From NCBI RefSeq assembly GCF_964204645.1, contig NC_134026.1:21672150-21736149 (forward strand): 64,000 nucleotides of DNA, read 5' to 3'. Below are positions 3,952-52,728 of this stretch, in pieces. Source of the DNA: Tubulanus polymorphus. Lineage: Eukaryota; Animalia; Nemertea. Each line of letters begins with the position of its first letter. Position 1 is the stretch's first letter. Position numbers and translations under genes: made by a program. The notes under the pieces were generated by a model. The model searched no databases. It saw only the letters and a program-made list of their open reading frames with translations, and had not been told where the DNA came from.

Positions 3952-32558
<28,607 letters not shown>

Positions 32559-39109: not shown

Positions 39110-40605
39110 ATGCCGCAAACGTCGAACAAGTTCAGCTGATCTCCAAAACATATCCACAAATACTTATAACAATTCCACAAAACAGCCCAAATTTCTTCTG
39201 TTTTTCATTTCTACAGTTGAGAACCATACGTGCGCATGACCCACCAAAATATTTTTCGGACAACTAGGCTTTTACAGTTGTTTGTCTCAAAGCTGCATTT
39301 TATTTTATTATCATTAATGTTTTACTTAACCTATGTCCTTATCCCAGGATTCATAGCGAGTCTCCAAAGTATTTCCTTTTCATACAAATTTCAAAAAGTG
39401 CTTAATTTCTTAGGTACCCCAAATGATTTTTTGGCGTTATGTGTTTTACCAATGACCAATGTTAAATGCCTATTTATTTGCTGTGGGCTTCAACAAACTT
39501 TATGTGACGGATTAGGACGAGAGTCGCAGTCTTATATGATAAGAAAAGTGTCACAAAAATGCTTAGCTTACTTCTACCTCGGCCTAACTACATTTACTGC
39601 CGGTATGAACCCTGTTGTATCAGACATAGGATTTTTAATGTGCTGAATGTACAAAGTACAAAAAAATATAATTGTACCAAATTATAATATCTTATTTTGC
39701 ATTTGTTATACCTGGTAACAGAATAACCGCTATAACTACCAGGCAGCTGTAGTTTAATGCCACATTAAGCGTTTAAGACTTTGTATTTTTTTAGCTGGTA
39801 TTCTTGTTAGTGCTATATATACACTGTATATACATGTTGTAAATATTTATTACCCTGTAATAAATCTGAAATCAAAAGTTTATAATTGCTTTTTTGTCAA
39901 TATTTTAGGATGTATTGACGGAGTTAAGCTAAGCTCAGGTCAACTTGCAACCCGACTAGAGTGGTAAGAACAGTGATAGTACTCACAGGACTGTTGATTG
40001 TCGATTCATGTGTCTCATGATCTTAAGAGCGCCAGGTCAATTATAACTCGATCATCACCACGTGACGTTACACTCATCCCTGATTGGCTACAATGATCTG
40101 ATCTGGTTGTAGAAACATCTTGTTCTATCCGCACGATCAGTTTGCGATCAATCCACCGCAGTTGCAAGTAAACTAGTGCCGATAAGGTTCCCGATTGTCA
40201 CTGACTCGCCTCTGATTTGATCTGATTAGGTCGTAAGTCGATCAGAGCTTAGCTTTAGTTCCAATGGAAGGTTTATCAGTGGTGGATGGACAAATTCTGT
40301 GTGAGAAAATGTTGAGGGAAGTACTTACCCTATAAATGTTCAGAAATGCATGCACTGTAGACATCCGGAGAATGATTCTTCAACAACACTTGAAGCAACC
40401 AATTGATGGACCCAACATAAGCTCTGCATTCACAATGGACAATTCATCCTCCCTGGCAGGGATTCGAACCTGGTGATGGCTTAGAGACTGCTGTGGGTAT
40501 GAAATGATGGTTTCATGCCATGGCTGTGTAGTAATTACATTTTGCACCCTCAATCAAAGTAAATAGGCTCTTCAAGGCAACAGATCAATCACTAAACTGG
40601 GCATA

Positions 40606-40673
40606 CAGTCATACCTCGATTTAACGCCACCCTTGGGGATTCCTGATATTTCTGTTAAATCGAGGTATGACTG
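40606..40673. mobile_element. Minimal 68-bp Tc1/mariner (pogo-like) MITE
   Basis: Perfect 20-bp TIR cagtcatacctcgatttaac / gttaaatcgaggtatgactg with TA on both sides. Confidence 0.75.
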
Positions 40674-42042
40674 TACATATATTTTATAGTTCAAACCAAT
40701 GCGAGTATGTTCCAAGTTATGGAGGTCAAGCGACTCAATGAAGGCAATTTGAAGATAACCATGTACTGGTAACCTACCAACTGTAGGCTGGACCCATATC
40801 CACTACTAATAACAATAATCAAAGATGAACTGCCTATATAATTCAAGTAGGCGTCTTTATTGCAATAACCAGTTATTACATGTACTATAACATTGGCCAT
40901 AATAATAATGTACAAAATTCTGTAGAATTACTAATCAATACATAAGAAAGCATGGTCCAGATTTTCCATAAATTTGTCGCAGACATTGATTTAGTAAGAA
41001 TTCATGTAAGGGGCCGTGCATCAAGTATGTATGCTATAGGTTTTTAACCCCACGTCCACAGTATGTATGCCTTTAGTACATTTATCTTACTAAAACCCCT
41101 TTTGCAAACATACTTTGTGACCATACACCCTCCCCCCAATAATGATGTTGACAGGCAGTGAATTAATAGGTATTGATACGATGTTCAAAATTTAAAATAG
41201 ATGAATATTTAATCGAAAAATCACTCCTGTGCTGAACATCAAGTCCCCCATATAAAGTAATGCACGTTTTGGCTTGACCCCCCACCTTAACCATGTACAC
41301 TTTTGTACTGATTCACCCACATACTTTCTGTACAGCCCCAAACAGCATACCAGTAGCTATTTTATAATTCTGTGTTGTATGTACAGCAAACATTAAAATT
41401 AATTTATATAAACCCATTATGAATAAAATATCCAGATAACATTTCTTTTTTAAATATTCATGTACATAAATACCAATCAATAAGGCCTTTCACGCGCCGA
41501 AAAAACCAGTCATAATTACACTTATAAAAGTCCTATCTACAATCATTCATTAATTTTGTTTTTGAATGAAGTAATCAACTTTTTCTTCTACTATCAACCG
41601 AAGTTACCTATCACACAAACGCTTAAATATAAAATTGCCATCAAATTCACAATGCCATCAAGATTACTAGTGCCTTTAGGTCAGAGCTCACAAGACCATT
41701 CTGTCTATCTCGAGACGAATATCATTTCAGCCATCAAACTTTTCCCCGAATTTCCGAGGAATCATATGATTAAACCTAACATACGCAATCAAGTCAGTTG
41801 TTCAGAAATCGAGGCGATACCCAGGGTAAGGTAGAATCTACCCTGACGAACTTTGTTTAATTAAAAATCTTACAAAACACAAGCCCAAATATACTGAATC
41901 TTGATACTTTTCATATTCTTCCGTAACATTTGTCAACGTATTATGAGTACTACTCGGATTGAATCGAAATTATTCAACTCATATCACACTTTCCAAATCC
42001 TTTTTCTACCCTTTTAATTGGCGCACATCTACATTGCATATT

Positions 42043-45000
42043 TCACTGATTTGAACTGCGTAGCGGTAATTTCGAACGCGGGGCACTTTTCGGCGTCGCC
42101 GCATTAGTTTTCTTTTTTGGTGTCCGAGTTGACGAAGCGATTCGAGCTTTTTTCACTGGCGCTACGGTGGCAACCTTCTCTTTCTGGGCGATTTCTATGT
42201 TTTCTTTCGATTCAACATCGGCGAGCTGGAATAATACAAAGATCGGGTTACAAAATTTGCCAATATAAGAGATGGTGATCTTAATGGTAATCATTCCATT
42301 CATTTCAAATGATAAAATCAAATTGTTACCCGTAGATCTTCACAACTGAAGCCAATTGTATCGGCAATAGCAGAATCAGCTGTAGAGTCCTACAAAATCA
42401 TCAAGTACAAACATCAATAGACTGAAATAGTGACATGAAGCATTGCTGCAGGTGCAAAATGACGATTGCCATTTTTCAAGCAGTCAAGAGTTAAAAGCAG
42501 ACTAATACCAGTAAGTATTTACCAGACCAATTGATCAAAAATGATTTAGGCCATTAACAGAGAAGTACATACTTAGTGTCAGTTCCAAGTTGCTTCCAGT
42601 TGACACATTACTTCCAGTTCACTGGGGAAATGTACTAAGTGCCATGGAACTGGTGCCAAGTGTGCCAAATTTCATTAATCAAACAACAAATTTACCTTAG
42701 AAATACTAGCTTCACTAGCTACACTTTCTTCACTCGACGAATTCTGAAGAAGATATAAAGGTAATCATTTTCATCTTTTAAATAATTCCATCGCATGGGT
42801 CAAATTTTACGCACAGGGATCATTCATATTTATTACGTACGCATGAAATTTGACTTTTTCATCCCCCCCCTTCCTGTACGCAAAATTTCCATATACATAA
42901 AGCATAACAGTACGCAATTGCAATGACTCCTCCCCTAATGCGTATTTAATAAATGAATGATCCCAGAATCAAATTGAAATCCAATTCTATCTATTACTAA
43001 CCAGTAAACTATAATCGCTATCCTCTGGTAACGGCACCGTCGTCGCCTGGTTCAGATTCTCCTCTTGCATCATTTTGTGGAATTGACCGAGCAAAATATC
43101 GTGAGGCTGCGTTTTGACGATTCGTTTCGGGTACGGGAACTCGCGTCGAACGGGAGTCGTGCCGGTCGGCACGTCTTTCATCAGTTCCTCCGTGACGAAT
43201 CGCTCCACGTTTGCGCCTTGATATTTCACCGATTGCGACGTTCGCGCGGCGAAATCGCCCGCGCTAGATTCGTGCTCCGCGACAGAGTGCCGCAATTGAT
43301 CGACGTTCTCTTCGTGGTATTCCTGTTGCATGGACATCAGACTGATAATCTCCACCGTTCGACTAGAACTATTCGATGCAAGCTCCTAAAGTGAGAAATA
43401 TTCGAAGTAAGAAATAGAACTCGGGCCGAACTAGGGGTCCAGGGATACATAATGCCTGTTTGTTTACCTGACAATCAGTAGAGAGCTGTTCATTCATTGT
43501 TTCTAATGTCGAGCTGTATTCATTTACTGAAGCTAATAGATCATCCGTATGCCGAGTGCAACTCTGAAATAATCAAAAAAATTTTTCAAAAATTATTTAC
43601 CAGCTCATCTTAATACTGTAAATAATGGCAAATCAAAATTAGGCTAAACAAAAATGATACCTTGTTTCTCCACAGCGGCCGGGTCATTTTTGTAAAATAT
43701 GATAAAATTTATAAACAGTTCATTTCTATAGCGGCCGGGTCTGTTACGGTAAAATTGATCACGATTTTAAAAAAAGTAATGTATAGGGTAGATAGGCGGC
43801 CGGCCGGGTCAACATTTAAGCTCAGCAGAGCGGAGAAACAAGGTATCAATTTTTTTTTAGCCTTATTTAACAAACCTCTTCTTGTTGCTTCAATAGATTT
43901 GACACAGCAGATTCAACTTCACATTTTGACTCTTCTAATTGACTAGTTAATTCTTCAACCTAAAAAACCATACAGATAATCTTATTCATGTAACAATGCA
44001 CTTATATTGTTCTTTCAATCGAATAAAATTTGTCATCCTACTACAGTTCAAGCACTAAATCTACCCTCTGTAACTCTTGAGAAAATATCAAACTTGCAGA
44101 GTTTTTTTTTTCAATTTCAAGACGTAGCGACAATACGATAAAGCTTTTTCATCGAACATTTATTTATTACTAATTCCTGCAATAAGTCTTGGCCAACACG
44201 CGTTGATCACTGTGCATTTTAAAACGTCAAAGCTGGCTGTGATATGGACAATACACAAACTACACAGTCACAGCCAACTTAAACATTTCGAAAATTTGCA
44301 CCACCTCTTTTATGCCTGGAGTCACAGTTTCGTAGATATCAAAATGCGTCAAAGCAGGCTGTGATATGAAATAACACATAACACAAACACAACCATGTTT
44401 AACGTATCAAAATATCCTATTTCTCGAACTTTTTCTGCATCAACCACAGTCTTTAAGTCGTCCATCGTGGGCAGTATTAGTAATCACTGACATCACTTCA
44501 GACGTCTCTATTTTGGAGACCCAATTCGTATTTCCAATATCGAGCGCAGGTTATAATTTTGATCAATTTAACATTATGTTGGTCACAACTACTGAAGTTA
44601 GCTTCACGGCAAACACCATTCTTTATTATTATTATTATCACTTATTTTCCAATCCTGTCATAATAGTCACCGTAAAACGTCAAAGCTGGCTGTGATATGA
44701 TTACACTCAAGTGAAGAGATAATATAGCATACTCACAGTTACCTTTAACGTTTTGAAATGACCAGTTCCTTTATGAAGACGCGCAAGTAGCATTCAAAAG
44801 ACGTCAAAGCTGGCTGTGATATGATATAACCGTACATAATCACAGGTACCTTTAACGCCTCTTAGAAATGCCATCAATTCGTAGGATTCAGACATTCCTC
44901 TAAGACTTTTCATCGTTGAATAGCTTTGTAAATCGTAGCACGTCAAAGCTGGCTGTGATATGACCTGAATTAAACATTGCATACTCACAACCACCTTCAA

Positions 45001-48000
45001 CGCACCACAAAATTACTCTCTAAAAATCCATGTAAAATCTATACAATCACTTTTGCAGCATTCTTACAATTCACTGGTTTTATCTACAGTCCAGACACGG
45101 TCCCTACCGATCAGTCATTCCTGGATATAAGAAGTTTTCAAGGAGAAAATTTCAAATTTTGAGTGTCCATATCACTTAGGTGCCAATTACTGTAGAATCC
45201 TCCTTAATTAGTACTGTTATCTCCGTTAACCGGTTACAAAGTGGTTTTGTAAGCAAATTTGTATCCTTAACACCACTAAACTCAGTTTCTAATTCGGTAA
45301 CTGCTAATGGGATTAAAAAAATTTCTGGTCCGAACTGTACCAAGTTGTTGAGGAATCAAGTTGTAGGAGCCTGCTCGATATCGTGCTAACATTTAACCAA
45401 GCCTAATGATATTAGAGCATATTTTTGATATCGAACATTATCGTTGCGATGGTAGGTAGAACAGAATAATCGCAACACGTCAAAGCAGGCTGTGATATGA
45501 ATAAAGTCTCGACATATTCACAACCAGTTTCAACGCGTCTCGGTTACTATTTCCAATGGCCATGAATTCCAAGAGGAATCGCATTGAACACCGTGTTACA
45601 CCCTAATAAGCTACCTTGGCACGTCAAAGCAGATTGTGATATGGTATGACGAACATATTCACATAATCACAATCAACTTCAACCCGTCAAAATAACCAAA
45701 TCTTCTTTCATGAGAACAGCAATTTCCGACCATAAACTTAATTCATTATCCCGGAAACACTAATAAGTCATAATAACGCGGCATCGAATGCTATTTCAGT
45801 CGACGAAAGTGAAGAAAAGCTTAGAGCATAAAATAGAAACATACCTTCTTTATGTGCGATTGTGTTACCGACTGGTCAATTTGTGATTGCTTTTCATACG
45901 TGCACCTCGCTATGGCAGGATCTTCGTGTACAGTTTTCAATGAACTGAAATTAAGCGGAAGACAAACGTGTTGATTGATTTTCGTTACCACTTGCTTCGT
46001 TCTCAACCACCGAAAAAATGTGCATTTTTAGAAATATTGAAAGAAAACATACCATAAAGTTAACTCTTCCATGTCAGTGACCAACTTTCTCGTTTGTTCG
46101 ACATTCTCGGTGAGCTGTTACACAAGAAGAAATGACATTATCATAAATGGCTATTCAGAAAGTCTAAACAGTTAACAGCAGGACCCAGTTCCACAGCCAT
46201 GAGTTGAGAGTCAACTCTGAGCTCCTTTTCAAATGTTCCACTTATATTTATTTGACTTGCTCTTCCCCCGTCTCTCCTCTGAGATGCAGGTAAGTGGCTA
46301 CCCACTTAAGACTCACCCACCACAACTGTGAACTCAATCATTCAATTAACTTACACCTGCATGTCCTTGCTTTAGATGATTTTGTTGTTCACAAACCATA
46401 TTGTCCAGTAAATCGCTTATTTCCGACATGACTTTCTTTTTAATATTTTGTGCTAGTTCATTATGCGAAGATGTCAATTGCGATGTGAGTTGATTTTGAC
46501 GGTCGAAGCTCTGATTGGACTGCTGTATGTAACTGACAACATGCGATTGTAACGAATCGACTTTTTGCTGTTGGGTTTGTACGAAATTCCTGAGAAAGCT
46601 TTCTTGTCGAGCCATCTGAAAATCATCAAAAATTTCATATTCTAGTTTTTAGTGCCTATTCAGACCTATTCAAGCACGAAAGCTTTTATAGAATTTTAAG
46701 AAAAATCAAATATGTTGATACAAAATGTAGAATGCTGTTATATTACACCTACCTGTTCTTTCACCATTGCACTGAGGTCCTGTAAAGCCTGGTGTTGTCC
46801 ATCAAATCGTCCTTGAATAGTATCCATCAGAGGTTGATAAAGTGTTTGTCTAAAATTGCCCAAATGCGATATCTGACCAGACTAAGAACAAAAAAATAAA
46901 ATTAAAAAAATATTTCATGTTAGAATAAAATTTTTCTATAAAGCATCAGTACGAAATACTTTTCCAAGATTTTACCTGCCGTTGTTGTATTTTATGCGAT
47001 AGACTTTCAGTTGTCTGTTGAAGATTCTGTGAATAGCTTTTGTGATGATTTTGTACGAGATCTTTATGTTGATGAACAGCAATTAGAAGAGTTGACGTAG
47101 CCTCGGATAACGCTTTCATTTCGTCCCTTCGTTCTTGGATACTTGAATCTACATTGCACGAAACCAACCGAGTTGAGAAGTAACAATTGAGATTATGTTT
47201 TTAACCGGGGTCCCTATAGATCAATCACTCCCCCGATACATGTTTCAAAGGAGAAAAATTTCAAGGAAGCGCGGAACGCGAGTACATCAGTGCCTAATTT
47301 CATAAGCAAATTTCCATGCTGGACACTACTAAACTTGGTTTCTACTTCGGAAGCCACCTAATAAGGTATCAAAAAGATCCTGGTTCCAACTGAACTGAAT
47401 TAGGCAAAGTCCAGTGCACAACCACTTCTAAAGTATCTAGTTGCTTATTTCTCAAAATTGAAGGAGTTTTTTTAAAGGAGTTTCTGGCATTTTGCTCAAA
47501 TTAGGACTTTCCACCACCTTCAAAAGCATTTTCTGTTTAAAAGCAGTTTTCAAGGAATCGTATCAAGGAGTCATCTCATAGGGACTGTGAGAAATCATCG
47601 AAAACTGTCACTGGTTATAAACATTCAAAAATTTCAAATGAGCTACAACAAGGTCTATGCAGGAGTGAATGATTTTTACCTAACATGTGCTGCATCGTCC
47701 GACACCAGTCAGTCTGAGATGAGCTGAACGACTGCAGATCCGCATCGATGGTACCGATATCGCTCGTGAACTTCGATAGAAACCGCGTCTGACACGATTC
47801 ATTTTGCGTCTCGACGCTGCGAAACCGGTCGAGTTTAGCGTGAAGACCGATCACATCGGTCGTCGACTCATCGACCGTTTGTAATAACTGCGACAAAAAA
47901 AAAAGAAACACGTTTACACTAACGTTGATACCGGGATTAATCAAAATACTATAAGAATGATCGTAGATAATAAAGAGGGGGTAATCGCACGGAAAAATCC

Positions 48001-51000
48001 TATCTATCCAGTGCAAATCTAGCGAGAGACTTTTCTTCAGGGCTGCTAACCTTTGAAAAGTTCTATCAGTTACAACTGAATTTTTTTAATTGAAATAAAT
48101 ATGTCAGAGAAGATCAAATCAATCAGTATCAATATTAAAGCTCTCAGTAAAATCTTTCATATTTCTATATGCATCAAACAAATCAAATCAGCATTTCTCG
48201 ATCTTACTACATAATTCAAATTCTGGTAGGCCTACTTGAATTCTAATTCTAATTCTAATTGGGAATACACATATGACATTGGGCCAGCGTTGAATATAAT
48301 CACCTCATTAGCTTGTGAATAAAGTGTCTTCTCGGTTTTCACGTGTTCGTTGACGAGATGTTTTTGAGCGTTGCGTTCGTAAATCGTCGTTTGCAGTTTC
48401 GTTTTCGTTTTGTCGAGCGTTTTCGTCGTCTGTTCCAAATTCACAGTCGTCGTGTGCAGCTGTTCGGTCATTTCGTCCAATTCCGCTTTCGTTATATTGA
48501 ATAGATCGGTAATCTTCAAGAATTCGTCGGTCGTCAATTTGATCTTCTCTTCCAGGTCGATTATCACGTCGCGTTGTTGAGAAATTTTTGTGGTCATTTC
48601 GCTGCAAATCAAATCAACGCAAAATGTTTTAACTAGAAATATTTTGATCCGATGATCAAACTTGACCCGTACTCCTAGAGAAGATGTTATGCCCTATGAA
48701 AGAGCAAATACGATCAACTTACTTGTAATTTTCGGTATCCAAATAAATTCCATTCTTTTCTCTGGCGGCTAGCAAATCTTTCCTCAACTTTTCGAGCTCT
48801 TCTGTGTATTCCTACAGTAAGTGTACATTGACATTCATTAGGATCCCGTCGAACAAAAAAATTCTGGATCCAGTTCCACAGTTCTGAGTGTAGATTCGAC
48901 TCCCCAAGTTATAACATTGAAAATTAACTAATTTCAACTCTGTCGTTAAAGCTTAACTCACACTGTGGAACTGGGTCCAGGGAACCGGGCTAAATTGAAA
49001 ATATAAGATTAGTAGAGATAAAAGTAAGTGATATAGGCATTACACGATCCACATTACACACCTTCAATAATGTTTTCTTCGATAATTTCTGATTAACCTC
49101 CGGTCGATTGGTAATATTCTTAGCTCTGTAAGCGTAATCAAGCGTGCTCAACGTTTCCTTTAAAAATAAATCAGATAAACAATCAATACCTAGACTGTGT
49201 AAACGTGTTTCTAAAATAAATGGCCAGCTACGTACTTCTAGGTTAGCCGATGCCGGGGAGATAGTGGCGATGATGGACGTTTTAGTTCGTCCTCCAAGGG
49301 AATCTTGAAGCAATCTCGTCAGTTTACTCTCCCTGAAACAAGAACCAAGCTACATGTAGAGTGGAACCTTCAGGAGACCTGAAAATCTTGTTCCAATATG
49401 ATAGATAACAGGGACTCTCATCACAGATGATGTTCTGTATCAAATTTTCTTAATTCATTGAAGTCTAGTTTGTTATTGCAAATGAAACTTAATTTCATGT
49501 CGCAACTGGCCAAGCTTTTGATGCCTACCTGTACGGAACGTGTGGCGCGTGTTCCACAAGAGCCGTTATAACGCGTCCCAGGGTCAACAGACTCTGATTG
49601 ATATTACCAGCTTCGCGAGCTTGTTTGTTGATCGCTCCCGACCGTCCGATATTTTCACTACCAGCAAGATCGACCTAAGCATGGAAAATTAACTAAATTG
49701 TTACTGGTGGCAGACCTTAATTGGAGTCAACTTTATCTCAACTTTGGGATTGATTTTTTGGAAGCATGGCTTATAAACATACCAGATTCAGTTTCCCAGT
49801 TTTCAACAGTTCTTCGCCTTCAATGTTGTTCTCTTTTATGTGGATCGTCACAGAGAAAATTGTGTGCGAGCGACTGTAATGAAGACGAAACCTTTATGTT
49901 TTTTCTTACAAACGAAGCTTTTCCTAATCACACGATGTTGGCCATCATCATATAATGGATGCAAATTTTCCTGGACTTTTAGGGGAGACGAACCTGGATC
50001 GTGCATTCATAAGCGTCTCCGCGGTGCGCCTCTTGTGCGCTCCTTTTTCGAGTATCTGATAAACTTCATCCTTGTTGTGCACGACAACTTCATCCAGTCC
50101 TTGGATAACGACCGACCCCTATTGAAAATCAATAAACAACCATCTCAGCATTTTTAAGCCTTAAATTGACGAAAGGTTCAACAACCGAATCGATTTCAGA
50201 CCTTTCTGGCGGAATCTTCGAAAATCCGTAATCGCAACGAGTCGTCTTGATTTTTCAACAAGTCAAAAAGCTCTTCATTGTACAATTCCATGTATGAGAC
50301 GCGAACTGAGTATTCTATATCCTGAAATAGAAGATCAATGATGTTTGATATAATGAAGTAATTTTTTTGCAATTTAATCCCCTGCGGTTCCTGCTCACCA
50401 AGGATTACACTATAAACCATGAGCCGGTTCCATAGTTATGGTTTAGACTTTTAAGACCAATCTAAGACCATTTTAATTCTTTTATAGCTAATCTAACAGC
50501 ATAAAATAAAACCAATCTAAAGATTTTAAAATCACTTTTGGATTTTTGTCTCAACTATGGAACTGGCAACAGATTATTGCATCGTATTATATCATTATTT
50601 TTACATAAGAAGCATTATTTCCAATAGCTAGATTAGAAAACAATTTAAGACACGTTTTCGTTAATGGCACTTTCCTTCAGACCTGAACACTATTCATATT
50701 GTACTAATTTTAGTGTAACTTATTAGTAGGCCGATTGAGCATTGTTGATTAGATTTTCACGGACCTTTTTGGGACTGTTATTCCTTACCCAAAATATGTT
50801 TAGGACACCTAGAAGTGTACAGTCACCAGGATTTTGAATCCAAGAACACCGGATTTACCAGACTATGATGCTCAAGACAATTTAAAATCACTCTTTAAAC
50901 CATTTCTGTCAGATAGATATCCATACGACCATGGTTCGCACAGTAATATGAATTCAAAATTCCCAAGTATTTCATGGGTGATTTTTCAATTTTCCCAAAT

Positions 51001-52728
51001 GCAAATGCACACATATCGTCATGCTACAGTCAACATATTAGCGGTGACTGGTTAATAAAGGTGATTTTCAAGGGAAACTGCTGAAGAAAGTTGCCCTTGG
51101 CAAATGCAATTTGTGAAATGTAATGAATTTTCCAAATACTTCCCTGATATGAGGAAGATTTTTCAAATTCCCAAATATTTCCAAACCGGGAATTATTATT
51201 TAAAAATTCCCAAGTTTTCCCAATTTCCCTGTTCTGTGGGAACCATGTACGACAGAGTTATGTCAAAATCTTTTACCTGTTGTTGAAGGCGATGAAACAA
51301 CTGATTCATTGTTCTTGGCACGATACCAGCTAGAGGGTCGTCCTCCCAGGATAAATCACAATCAGGACTTCTTTCACCTTCCATCGTAAAAGTTTTACCG
51401 GTTCCAGTCTGCCCGTATCTACCAGAAAAACGACATGGATAAATATTAACTTGTTAACTTTATGGTCTTTCTCCACAAATTGTAATTGCAATTGTAAATC
51501 AATAAAGCTAACAGACAGCATAACCCATAGGATGTACATGTATCAATACAATGACAATTGATCTCAGGGATGAAAATGGCCCATATTGAAAGTCGGAAAA
51601 TATTTTCAAAAAAAAAAAGAATTTTTTTAGGGAACAAAAATCAGTAACTTTTAGCCAAAAAACTTACTTCCTTTTGGTCAAAATGTTAATAGTTTGGGCC
51701 TGAATTATAGCCGCTTTTTGAATGAGACGCCATATTGGTTTCTCCGACTCCACAGTTGTACTAACAACTGCCAAAAACCGTCTTAAGGAGCGCTCCGATG
51801 TGACGCCCGCGATTGAGGTGATTAAAGCGATTGAGGTGATTTACACTGTTCTCAGGAACAAAGAAAATGTTACAAAAGGTCGGAAATCTGTCTATGGTCG
51901 GAAGATTTTCATCCCTGTGATCTACTCTCAAACATTTTTCTTAATAAAATCCTCGGCTCATAACTTACGCAAATATGGTGCAGTTATATCCGAGCAGAAC
52001 TTCATCGAGAATTGGTAAAACTACTGATTTGTAGAGTTCGATTTGTTTCGAATTCGGTCCGAACACTTTGTCGAACGTGAATGTCTTCGACGTCGACGCC
52101 AGATGAGGCTTCTCTTGTATGAAGATTTCCTTCTTATCGGGCCGACATTCAATGACCGAAAAACATCCATTTTTTCGCTCATAGTTGTTCATAGGTCTGA
52201 AAATTGACAAAACGAATATAGTTACACAATATTTCGGATTCGAAAATCGTTGGGAGAATTTTCCGAAACGCGGATTGTATCGGGCACATGTTTCACAAAG
52301 TCAGACACAAAGAATCAGGGAAATCGAATGAAGTTTTGCCAATCCACAGAAAATTTTCTCAATGTCGTTAATAGTGACAAGTATCAGGTCGGAATCTATT
52401 CCGATAGTTATAAAGGCAGGTTTTGGATTTCTTCCAACCCTCAAGTGCATTCTTATGGATCGAATTCCGTGGTTGTGGGTAAGAGTTAACTCATGAATTG
52501 AAATTAGTTCATTTTCGATGAGTTAACTCAGGGTCAAATCATCACTCAGAATTGTGGACCCGGGCAACGGTGCTTTATTTTGGAACAGAATATACACTAG
52601 ACATATTCCAAAGTTGGAATATGTGTTAATCAAAACCTGCCTAGGTCCAGAAACTTTGAAACTGACCTGCATCGCACAACTGAATGAATGTGCTGATTCT
52701 TTTCTTTTTCCTGTCTTCTCGGGGCCAT
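42043..52728 (-). CDS. KIF11: Kinesin-5 (KIF11/Eg5/BimC family) mitotic motor, 23 coding exons, ~1093 aa
   Basis: Exons: 52667-52728, 51969-52196, 51277-51418 ([10 protein letters not shown]-loop), 50202-50321, 49994-50118, 49783-49873 (SRSH), 49529-49674 (DLAGSE...HVPYR), 49236-49332, 49062-49157, 48723-48811, 48304-48601, 47680-47887, 46976-47148, 46753-46881, 46355-46615, 46053-46114, 45845-45944, 43876-43959, 43468-43563, 43002-43385 (BimC box PTGTTPVRR), 42696-42743, 42330-42389, 42043-42225 (KEN box, KLPLR tail). Total 3282 nt, all phases consistent. Confidence 0.96.
42816..42964. mobile_element. MITE
   Basis: gggatcattcat..ttatta / taataaatgaatgatccc; a similar element lies at ~41010-41338. 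Confidence 0.55.
43642..43862. mobile_element. Harbinger/ISL2EU-like MITE
   Basis: ggctaaacaaaaatgataccttgtttctcc / ggagaaacaaggtatcaatttttttttagcc with TTA duplication; internal cggccgggtc x3. Confidence 0.7.
44212..44300 (-). ncRNA. mir-2: pre-miR-2 family hairpin 1 (mature 3p TATCACAGCCAGCTTTGACG)
   Basis: Plus-strand cgtcaaagctggctgtgata at 44225-44244 is the reverse complement of miR-2. Complementary star arm tcacagccaacttaaac at ~44268-44284. Confidence 0.9.
44335..44416 (-). ncRNA. mir-2: pre-miR-2 family hairpin 2 (TATCACAGCCTGCTTTGACG)
   Basis: Core 44347-44366; star arm cacaaccatgtttaacgta; closing stem gatat/atatc. Confidence 0.87.
44666..44762 (-). ncRNA. mir-2: pre-miR-2 family hairpin 3 (TATCACAGCCAGCTTTGACG)
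   Basis: Core 44678-44697; star arm tcacagttacctttaacgtttt; lower stem gtca/tgac. Confidence 0.87.
44790..44871 (-). ncRNA. mir-2: pre-miR-2 family hairpin 4 (TATCACAGCCAGCTTTGACG)
   Basis: Core 44802-44821; star arm atcacaggtacctttaacgcct; lower stem gcatt/aatgc. Confidence 0.88.
44928..45016 (-). ncRNA. mir-2: pre-miR-2 family hairpin 5 (TATCACAGCCAGCTTTGACG)
   Basis: Core 44941-44960; star arm tcacaaccaccttcaacgcac; lower stem gtaa/ttac. Confidence 0.87.
45085..45365. repeat. Interspersed repeat inside the miR-2 cluster
   Basis: ggtcccta..gatca..ggagaaaa..aagcaaattt..cactaaact..gtttcta is also found at ~47204-47400. Confidence 0.5.
45466..45547 (-). ncRNA. mir-2: pre-miR-2 family hairpin 6 (TATCACAGCCTGCTTTGACG)
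   Basis: Core 45478-45497; star arm tcacaaccagtttcaacgcgt. Confidence 0.87.
45610..45696 (-). ncRNA. mir-2: pre-miR-2 family hairpin 7, seed variant (TATCACAATCTGCTTTGACG)
   Basis: Core cgtcaaagcagattgtgata 45622-45641; star arm atcacaatcaacttcaac carries matching changes that keep pairing. Confidence 0.8.
48867..48977. mobile_element. Palindromic MITE related to family B
   Basis: ccagttccacagt / actgtggaactgg arms, CWG flanks; relatives near 46180, 50420 and 52420. Confidence 0.65.

Follow-up and report, generated by a model that had tools for sequence, protein, structure and literature searches.

A seven-copy miR-2 cluster in a kinesin-5 intron of the nemertean Tubulanus polymorphus, with two predicted miR-2 sites in the host 3' UTR

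Moves of microRNAs into cell-cycle genes have been described in insects, with mir-11 and mir-998 having entered E2f, mir-995 cdc2c and mir-279 POLA2 (PMC4238352). The Drosophila arrangement, with mir-11 in an intron of E2f1, mir-995 in cdc2c and mir-279/996 in POLA2, resembles that of the locus described here, in that an ancient family occupies an intron of a cell-cycle gene, and mir-11, a member of the K-box family, has the AUCACA seed in common with this miR-2. The function described for mir-11 runs through cell-death genes and not through the host mRNA: miR-11 holds in check cell-death genes that lie downstream of its host (PMC4109884), and embryonic apoptosis is limited by miR-6 and miR-11 (PMC3321623). 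The present locus differs from mir-11/E2f1 in its host, a mitotic motor, and its animal, a nemertean, as well as in the seven copies of miR-2 and the seed sites of the host UTR.

Intragenic miRNAs with sites in their host transcript are likewise known, as with miR-92a/b and jigr1 in the fly (PMC4441384) and miR-93 and MCM7 in human, MCM7 being, like kinesin-5 here, a cell-cycle host of a cluster (PMC6049507). Those two cases have in vivo or CLASH evidence, whereas the kinesin-5 case is known from sequence and involves another seed family. Host targeting by an intragenic miRNA is therefore not new in itself; at this locus the anatomy (the hairpins, their strand, the splicing of the intron, and the place of the sites in the mature mRNA and their class) is real, and the circuit is unproven. 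The ancestral protostome mir-71/mir-2 cluster is similar in having tandem mir-2 hairpins whose 3' arms are conserved and whose number varies, with mir-71 as the ancestral partner of mir-2 (PMC3384581), but here there is no mir-71 in the window (the whole 64,000-nt stretch that was analysed), and the copies have a distinct common 3' end, one position-8 change and a location in kinesin-5. Finally, control of a kinesin-5 mRNA through its 3' UTR is described for Xenopus Eg5, whose EDEN element works through a CELF protein and not a miRNA (PMC2330240), whilst control at the present locus is predicted, and UGU here is within dinucleotide expectation.

The host gene was identified as kinesin-5 (KIF11/Eg5) through a 1093-aa protein of Tubulanus polymorphus named kinesin-like protein KIF11-A (P0001), which is 100% identical to the tail exon of the window and whose exons were mapped on the window by tblastn, the final one ending at 42046. 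The Pfam Kinesin profile (the N-terminal motor domain) matches two exons (E 5e-13 and 9e-14), and Microtub_bind, the kinesin-5 tail with its BimC-box region, matches with E 1.4e-14. A homologue search with the tail exon gave three matches among 123 candidates, none of them from a close relative. The end of the terminal exon encodes a KEN-like (SKENI) and an RxxL-like (RSKLPLR) motif, of types that we take to be APC/C degrons of kinesin-5 tails, and clearance of the protein after mitosis may already be provided for by these degron-like motifs.

Four of six listed sequencing runs were compared with the window, none of the six being recorded as RNA. Runs X2 and X3, from two studies, were read as RNA because their contigs join exons. 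Record 9 of X3 joins 45944-45843, 43957-43876, 43563-43467, 43384-43002 and 42225-41132, consecutive in record coordinates, with a single 108-nt gap that corresponds to a 48-nt and a 60-nt exon; record 3 of X2, from the other study, has the identical gap and extends to 41250. The contigs join the exons that flank the cluster intron, which is therefore spliced out, and both predicted sites are carried on transcripts with the coding exons. The transcript thus does not stop upstream of the sites in at least one isoform, an ending that the earlier note had named as fatal to its proposal.

Separate contigs stop at 40851 (X2) and 40838 (X3), 5 and 18 nt past the candidate AATAAA signal, and the UTR is probably ~1.2 kb long rather than the 430 nt spanned by the sites; its end at 40838 is a weak hint, as contigs cannot map ends and these end contigs are unjoined to the spliced ones. 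The variant ATTAAA signal, if used, could give a short isoform without site B and probably without site A. The UTR (minus strand) holds one Pumilio-type element (P 0.27) and five CPE-like motifs (P 0.06), neither above dinucleotide shuffles, and ARE motifs showed no enrichment over the same shuffles; the CPE came nearest of all motifs tried. Just past the inferred UTR end, at 40604-40675, two perfectly matching 22-nt inverted arms, 28 nt apart, lie in a repeated stretch, and the whole looks like a miniature inverted-repeat element. At 39700-39813, a 989-nt X2 contig ends at 39813, and GC skew flips sign near 40 kb; there may be the end of a neighboring transcript near 39813. Coordinates of all features are collected in Table 1.

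Table 1. Features of the kinesin-5 locus and its miR-2 cluster, in window positions.
Feature	Position	Strand	Details
Kinesin-5 (KIF11/Eg5) coding span	42043..52728	-	multi-exon, 1093 aa; tail-exon identity, tblastn, Pfam
Intron with miR-2 cluster	43958..45844	-	GT..AG, 1,887 nt; spliced out in contig X3 record 9
mir-2 hairpin h1	45615..45689	-	position-8 variant (A); Rfam 35.2 bits (E 1e-3), below gathering; z -6.0
mir-2 hairpin h2	45471..45540	-	Rfam 49.4 bits; z -4.9
mir-2 hairpin h3	44934..45007	-	Rfam 55.6 bits; z -7.0
mir-2 hairpin h4	44795..44862	-	Rfam 44.5 bits, below gathering; z -6.0
mir-2 hairpin h5	44671..44755	-	Rfam 39.1 bits, below gathering; z -4.7
mir-2 hairpin h6	44340..44409	-	Rfam 42.0 bits, below gathering; z -4.4
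mir-2 hairpin h7	44218..44290	-	Rfam 46.0 bits; z -5.4
Terminal exon, coding part	42043..42225	-	match to P0001 C-terminus; splice junction 42225 in spliced contigs
Stop codon TGA	42045-42043	-	end of kinesin-5 coding part
3' UTR, ~1,205 nt, distal end inferred	40838..42042	-	spliced contigs to 41250 (X2), 41132 (X3)
Variant poly(A) signal ATTAAA	42013..42018	-	25 nt past stop; putative
Predicted miR-2 7mer-A1 site A (TGTGATA)	41982..41988	-	55 nt past stop
Predicted miR-2 7mer-A1 site B (TGTGATA)	41609..41615	-	428 nt past stop
Candidate poly(A) signal AATAAA	40856..40861	-	only AATAAA within 2 kb

The intron carries seven mir-2 hairpins between 44218 and 45689, all on the minus strand and hence in sense relative to kinesin-5. 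The Rfam family RF00047 matches all seven (E 7e-9 to 1e-3), and three pass the gathering score, the four below it having E 5e-6 to 1e-3; against shuffles, fold z ranges from -4.4 to -7.0. The 5' end of the mature product was taken from the Rfam register alone, and with that canonical end the seed AUCACA occupies positions 2-7 in 7/7. All predicted matures start with TATCACA, the next base being G in six, which read UAUCACAG, and A in one, which reads UAUCACAA. The 3' arms, which give the mature product, are near-invariant, whilst loops and flanks are divergent among the hairpins, as would be expected of working miRNAs. A downstream CNNC processing motif stands at offsets 17-19 past the assumed 22-nt end in 3/7. 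In the variant h1, position 8-9 is altered (UAUCACAAU) and the 5' arm carries matching changes; judged from its sequence, the position-8 change may have shifted the target set of h1 for 7mer-m8 sites.

It is improbable, in our estimate, that cluster and sites never meet, whether through a promoter of the cluster's own within the intron, expression in other tissues (e.g., neurons) or an mRNA ending at ATTAAA. The short form that the last of these calls for is set against spliced contigs with the long UTR in both studies, and the hairpins are in sense, within a short intron and with ~155 nt from donor to h1, which speaks against separate expression.

No match to mir-71 was found in the window with Rfam, and the closest approach to a miR-71 sequence has 6 mismatches in 21 positions. 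Metagenome contigs hold at least 125 miR-2 loci, and miR-71 lies beside 27 of the 125 listed. Among these 125, none has a kinesin-5 match at E<=1 (a positive control was matched), and none has the 3' end that is common to all seven copies here. This negative is weak, as only 19 of the 125 listed are flanked by 2 kb in both directions, many of the loci are redundant and no locus is known as nemertean. The distinct 3' end, the lack of miR-71 and the lack of kinesin-5 among the listed loci nevertheless fit a local move followed by expansion, and the sequences suggest a lineage-specific move of miR-2 into the kinesin-5 intron with tandem expansion there. The evidence for a seven-copy, miR-71-free cluster in this intron is stronger than that for the target-site claim. 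A literature search that lay outside most subscription papers found no paper placing miR-2 inside a kinesin-5 gene, and the accessible part of PMC12257675 does not mention it.

High-copy interspersed repeats, with very high contig depth, are also present in the kinesin-5 introns, at 42828-42964, 43639-43857 and ~45095-45300; one of them has 26-nt terminal inverted repeats, and one sits between h2 and h3. Mobile elements beside the cluster may possibly have a bearing on its move.

Two plus-strand TATCACA heptamers, at 41609-41615 and 41982-41988, had been reported in the earlier note; the coordinates are correct, and in the mRNA they are two copies of TGTGATA that do lie within ~430 nt of the stop codon, with 373 nt between site A and site B. 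On the spliced contigs, both sites pair perfectly with positions 2-7 and place an A opposite position 1. The assignment to the 7mer-A1 class is therefore right; the leading C of the K box is absent, both sites having a G opposite position 8. There is no pairing at position 8 (8mer or 7mer-m8) anywhere in the UTR, whether the copy has G8 or A8, no further instance of TGTGAT besides sites A and B, and no site for a +2 isomiR seed. All seven copies, the variant included, match both sites as had been claimed, since all begin with TATCACA. A mature start one base earlier than the Rfam register gives would turn both sites into 7mer-m8.

Site A lies near the stop codon in a context of 67–70% AU and is predicted to be more accessible than most of the UTR (92nd percentile); its 3' pairing is at background, equaled by 62–65% of UTR contexts. 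Site B is at the 65th percentile for predicted accessibility, and pairs 4 nt to miR nucleotides 12-15, which 12% of UTR contexts equal. In the fly, efficacy falls in the order 8mer, 7mer-m8, 7mer-A1, 6mer (PMC6172730); the accessible supplements of that paper name Klp61F, but in the miR-1 and miR-4 sheets, and are thus uninformative on K-box sites. The 7mer-A1 class, the 373-nt spacing and the background 3' pairing speak for a mild effect. A second sample retains both sites, with one substitution and one insertion over 911 nt of UTR, and being near-identical it says nothing on conservation.

The stretch 41972-41988, which contains site A, is complementary to 44954-44970 on the loop side of h3 (17 nt, 88%), and the extension of site A would also pair with 5'-extended isoforms. 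A further reading is that the 7-mers arose in a different way, site A as an inverted remnant of a hairpin fragment, or both as by-products of a UGU-rich, CELF/EDEN-like UTR. The match runs on 10 nt beyond site A, 8 of them complementary to h3 (P ~0.017, with the length chosen post hoc), the tetranucleotide null given below takes up part of the signal, and Xenopus Eg5 does use a UG-rich EDEN (PMC2330240). However, similar inverted repeats are common in the stretch (at least 15 pairs), site B has no such extension, and UGU, UGUG and UGUA counts in the UTR are not above dinucleotide shuffles. Overall, we consider such an origin very improbable.

Enrichment over chance was assessed on the 1,205-nt UTR. 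Two or more copies of TGTGATA were obtained with P 0.025 in 20,000 dinucleotide shuffles, and with 0.024 and 0.061 in trinucleotide and tetranucleotide shuffles (10,000 each); from the window rate (12 sites in 123,021 nt, a background from which the focal UTR and the intron with the cluster were removed) the probability is 0.006. For any site of at least 7 nt it is 0.04, or 0.095 when the variant position 8 is counted, and a 434-nt interval gives 0.004, but the end of that interval was fixed by the second site. Only 3 of the 210 anagrams of TGTGATA occur twice in the UTR, including TGTGATA itself (2 of the other 209), and when the background was cut into 99 non-overlapping tiles, none contained a pair. 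The same window has a more closely spaced pair (15518 and 15663, 145 nt apart), which serves as a natural chance control; it is antisense to a minus-strand protein kinase gene (9206-15888, with Pkinase matches on exons 15535-15888 and 9206-9445), and is therefore not a site in that mRNA. The suggestion of the earlier note that two copies are more than chance thus survives nominally: for the exact 7-mer, three of the four nulls give P 0.006–0.025 and the tetranucleotide null 0.061, whilst the wider site definitions give 0.04–0.095. The enrichment is modest and nominal, and comes from one locus picked from a very large scan.

The same note had proposed that the host transcript yields the miRNA that represses it. 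The hairpins are intronic and on the same strand, the intron is spliced and the sites are in the mature mRNA, all of which agrees with this, but the sites are of the weakest 7-nt class with 3' pairing at background. Where one promoter drives a host together with its repressor, the strict term is incoherent feed-forward loop and not feedback. Stated in full, the proposal is that such a loop has been selected as a self-limiting circuit, with one promoter giving kinesin-5 mRNA and miR-2, and both sites buffering motor dosage or clearing the mRNA, either once mitosis is over or during early embryogenesis. Its support lies in the occurrence of both sites in spliced mRNA in two studies, the nominal enrichment, the usability of both sites by every copy, and the favorable position and accessibility of site A. 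Several precedents are consistent with it: a doubled 7mer seed (positions 2-8) strongly raises repression in the fly (PMC1043860), in insects, miRNAs with the AUCACA seed have been connected with the clearance of maternal transcripts (PMC4691753), Xenopus Eg5 mRNA is deadenylated through its 3' UTR by EDEN-BP (PMC2330240), and miR-92 targets its host jigr1 in vivo (PMC4441384).

Against such a circuit, there is no 8mer or 7mer-m8, P climbs to 0.06 under the tetranucleotide null, and a mismatch at position 8 strongly cut regulation by miR-7, though not by miR-278 (PMC1043860). Further miR-2 loci in the genome could also provide the seed, and the loop therefore need not be local. Where host targeting has been measured, in human interactomes, it is rare (2 of 193, 2 of 121 and 17 of 188; PMC6049507), whilst predicted host targeting is ~20% (PMC3091682) and hosts have a raised target probability (PMC7016697). 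We hold the selected circuit to be a tentative possibility, because a low prior is combined with a several-fold gain in likelihood from two weak sites. Somewhat unlikely in our judgment is the bolder history, in which a captured miR-2, its expansion to seven copies and the gain of two sites produced a selected self-timer that clears kinesin-5 mRNA after its mitotic or early zygotic burst.

The explanation that we prefer, whilst giving it only about even chances, is that the hairpins are made from the host pre-mRNA and act mainly against other K-box genes, and that the sites in the host trim its mRNA slightly, being tolerated and not selected. A single copy would have entered the intron and then expanded in tandem. 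Co-transcription from the host promoter would mean that the cluster likely borrows the promoter of a cell-division gene, the seven hairpins being likely cut from kinesin-5 pre-mRNA wherever the host is transcribed, and the product would arise in dividing cells or oocytes. Repression of other K-box genes would be the main job, and the pair of weak sites that the host UTR carries would damp kinesin-5 slightly at most and is probably tolerated. The main function is placed in other targets in view of the insect miRNA moves, the part that miR-11 and miR-6 play in apoptosis and the tie of the seed family to maternal clearance.

What counts against tolerated sites is the nominal P under three of the four nulls, the scarcity of doubled anagrams, the absence of pairs from the background tiles, and the open, AU-rich context of site A. 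Site avoidance also speaks against it, as neutral sites might be expected to disappear from an mRNA whose transcription also yields seven copies of miR-2.

The design itself is known, and to specialists the locus would therefore be neat with little surprise. If the loop were true, a dosage-sensitive spindle motor would limit itself through its own intron, and the locus would offer a traceable case, through move, expansion and site gain, of how a host-targeting loop originates. If the self-timer were true, evolution would have arrived independently, by way of a miRNA, at a parallel to EDEN control in Xenopus Eg5, and the origin of a host-targeting loop in the wake of a miRNA move would have a dated example. 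Even without the loop, the pattern seen in insects, of ancient miRNAs entering cell-cycle genes, would extend to a spiralian.
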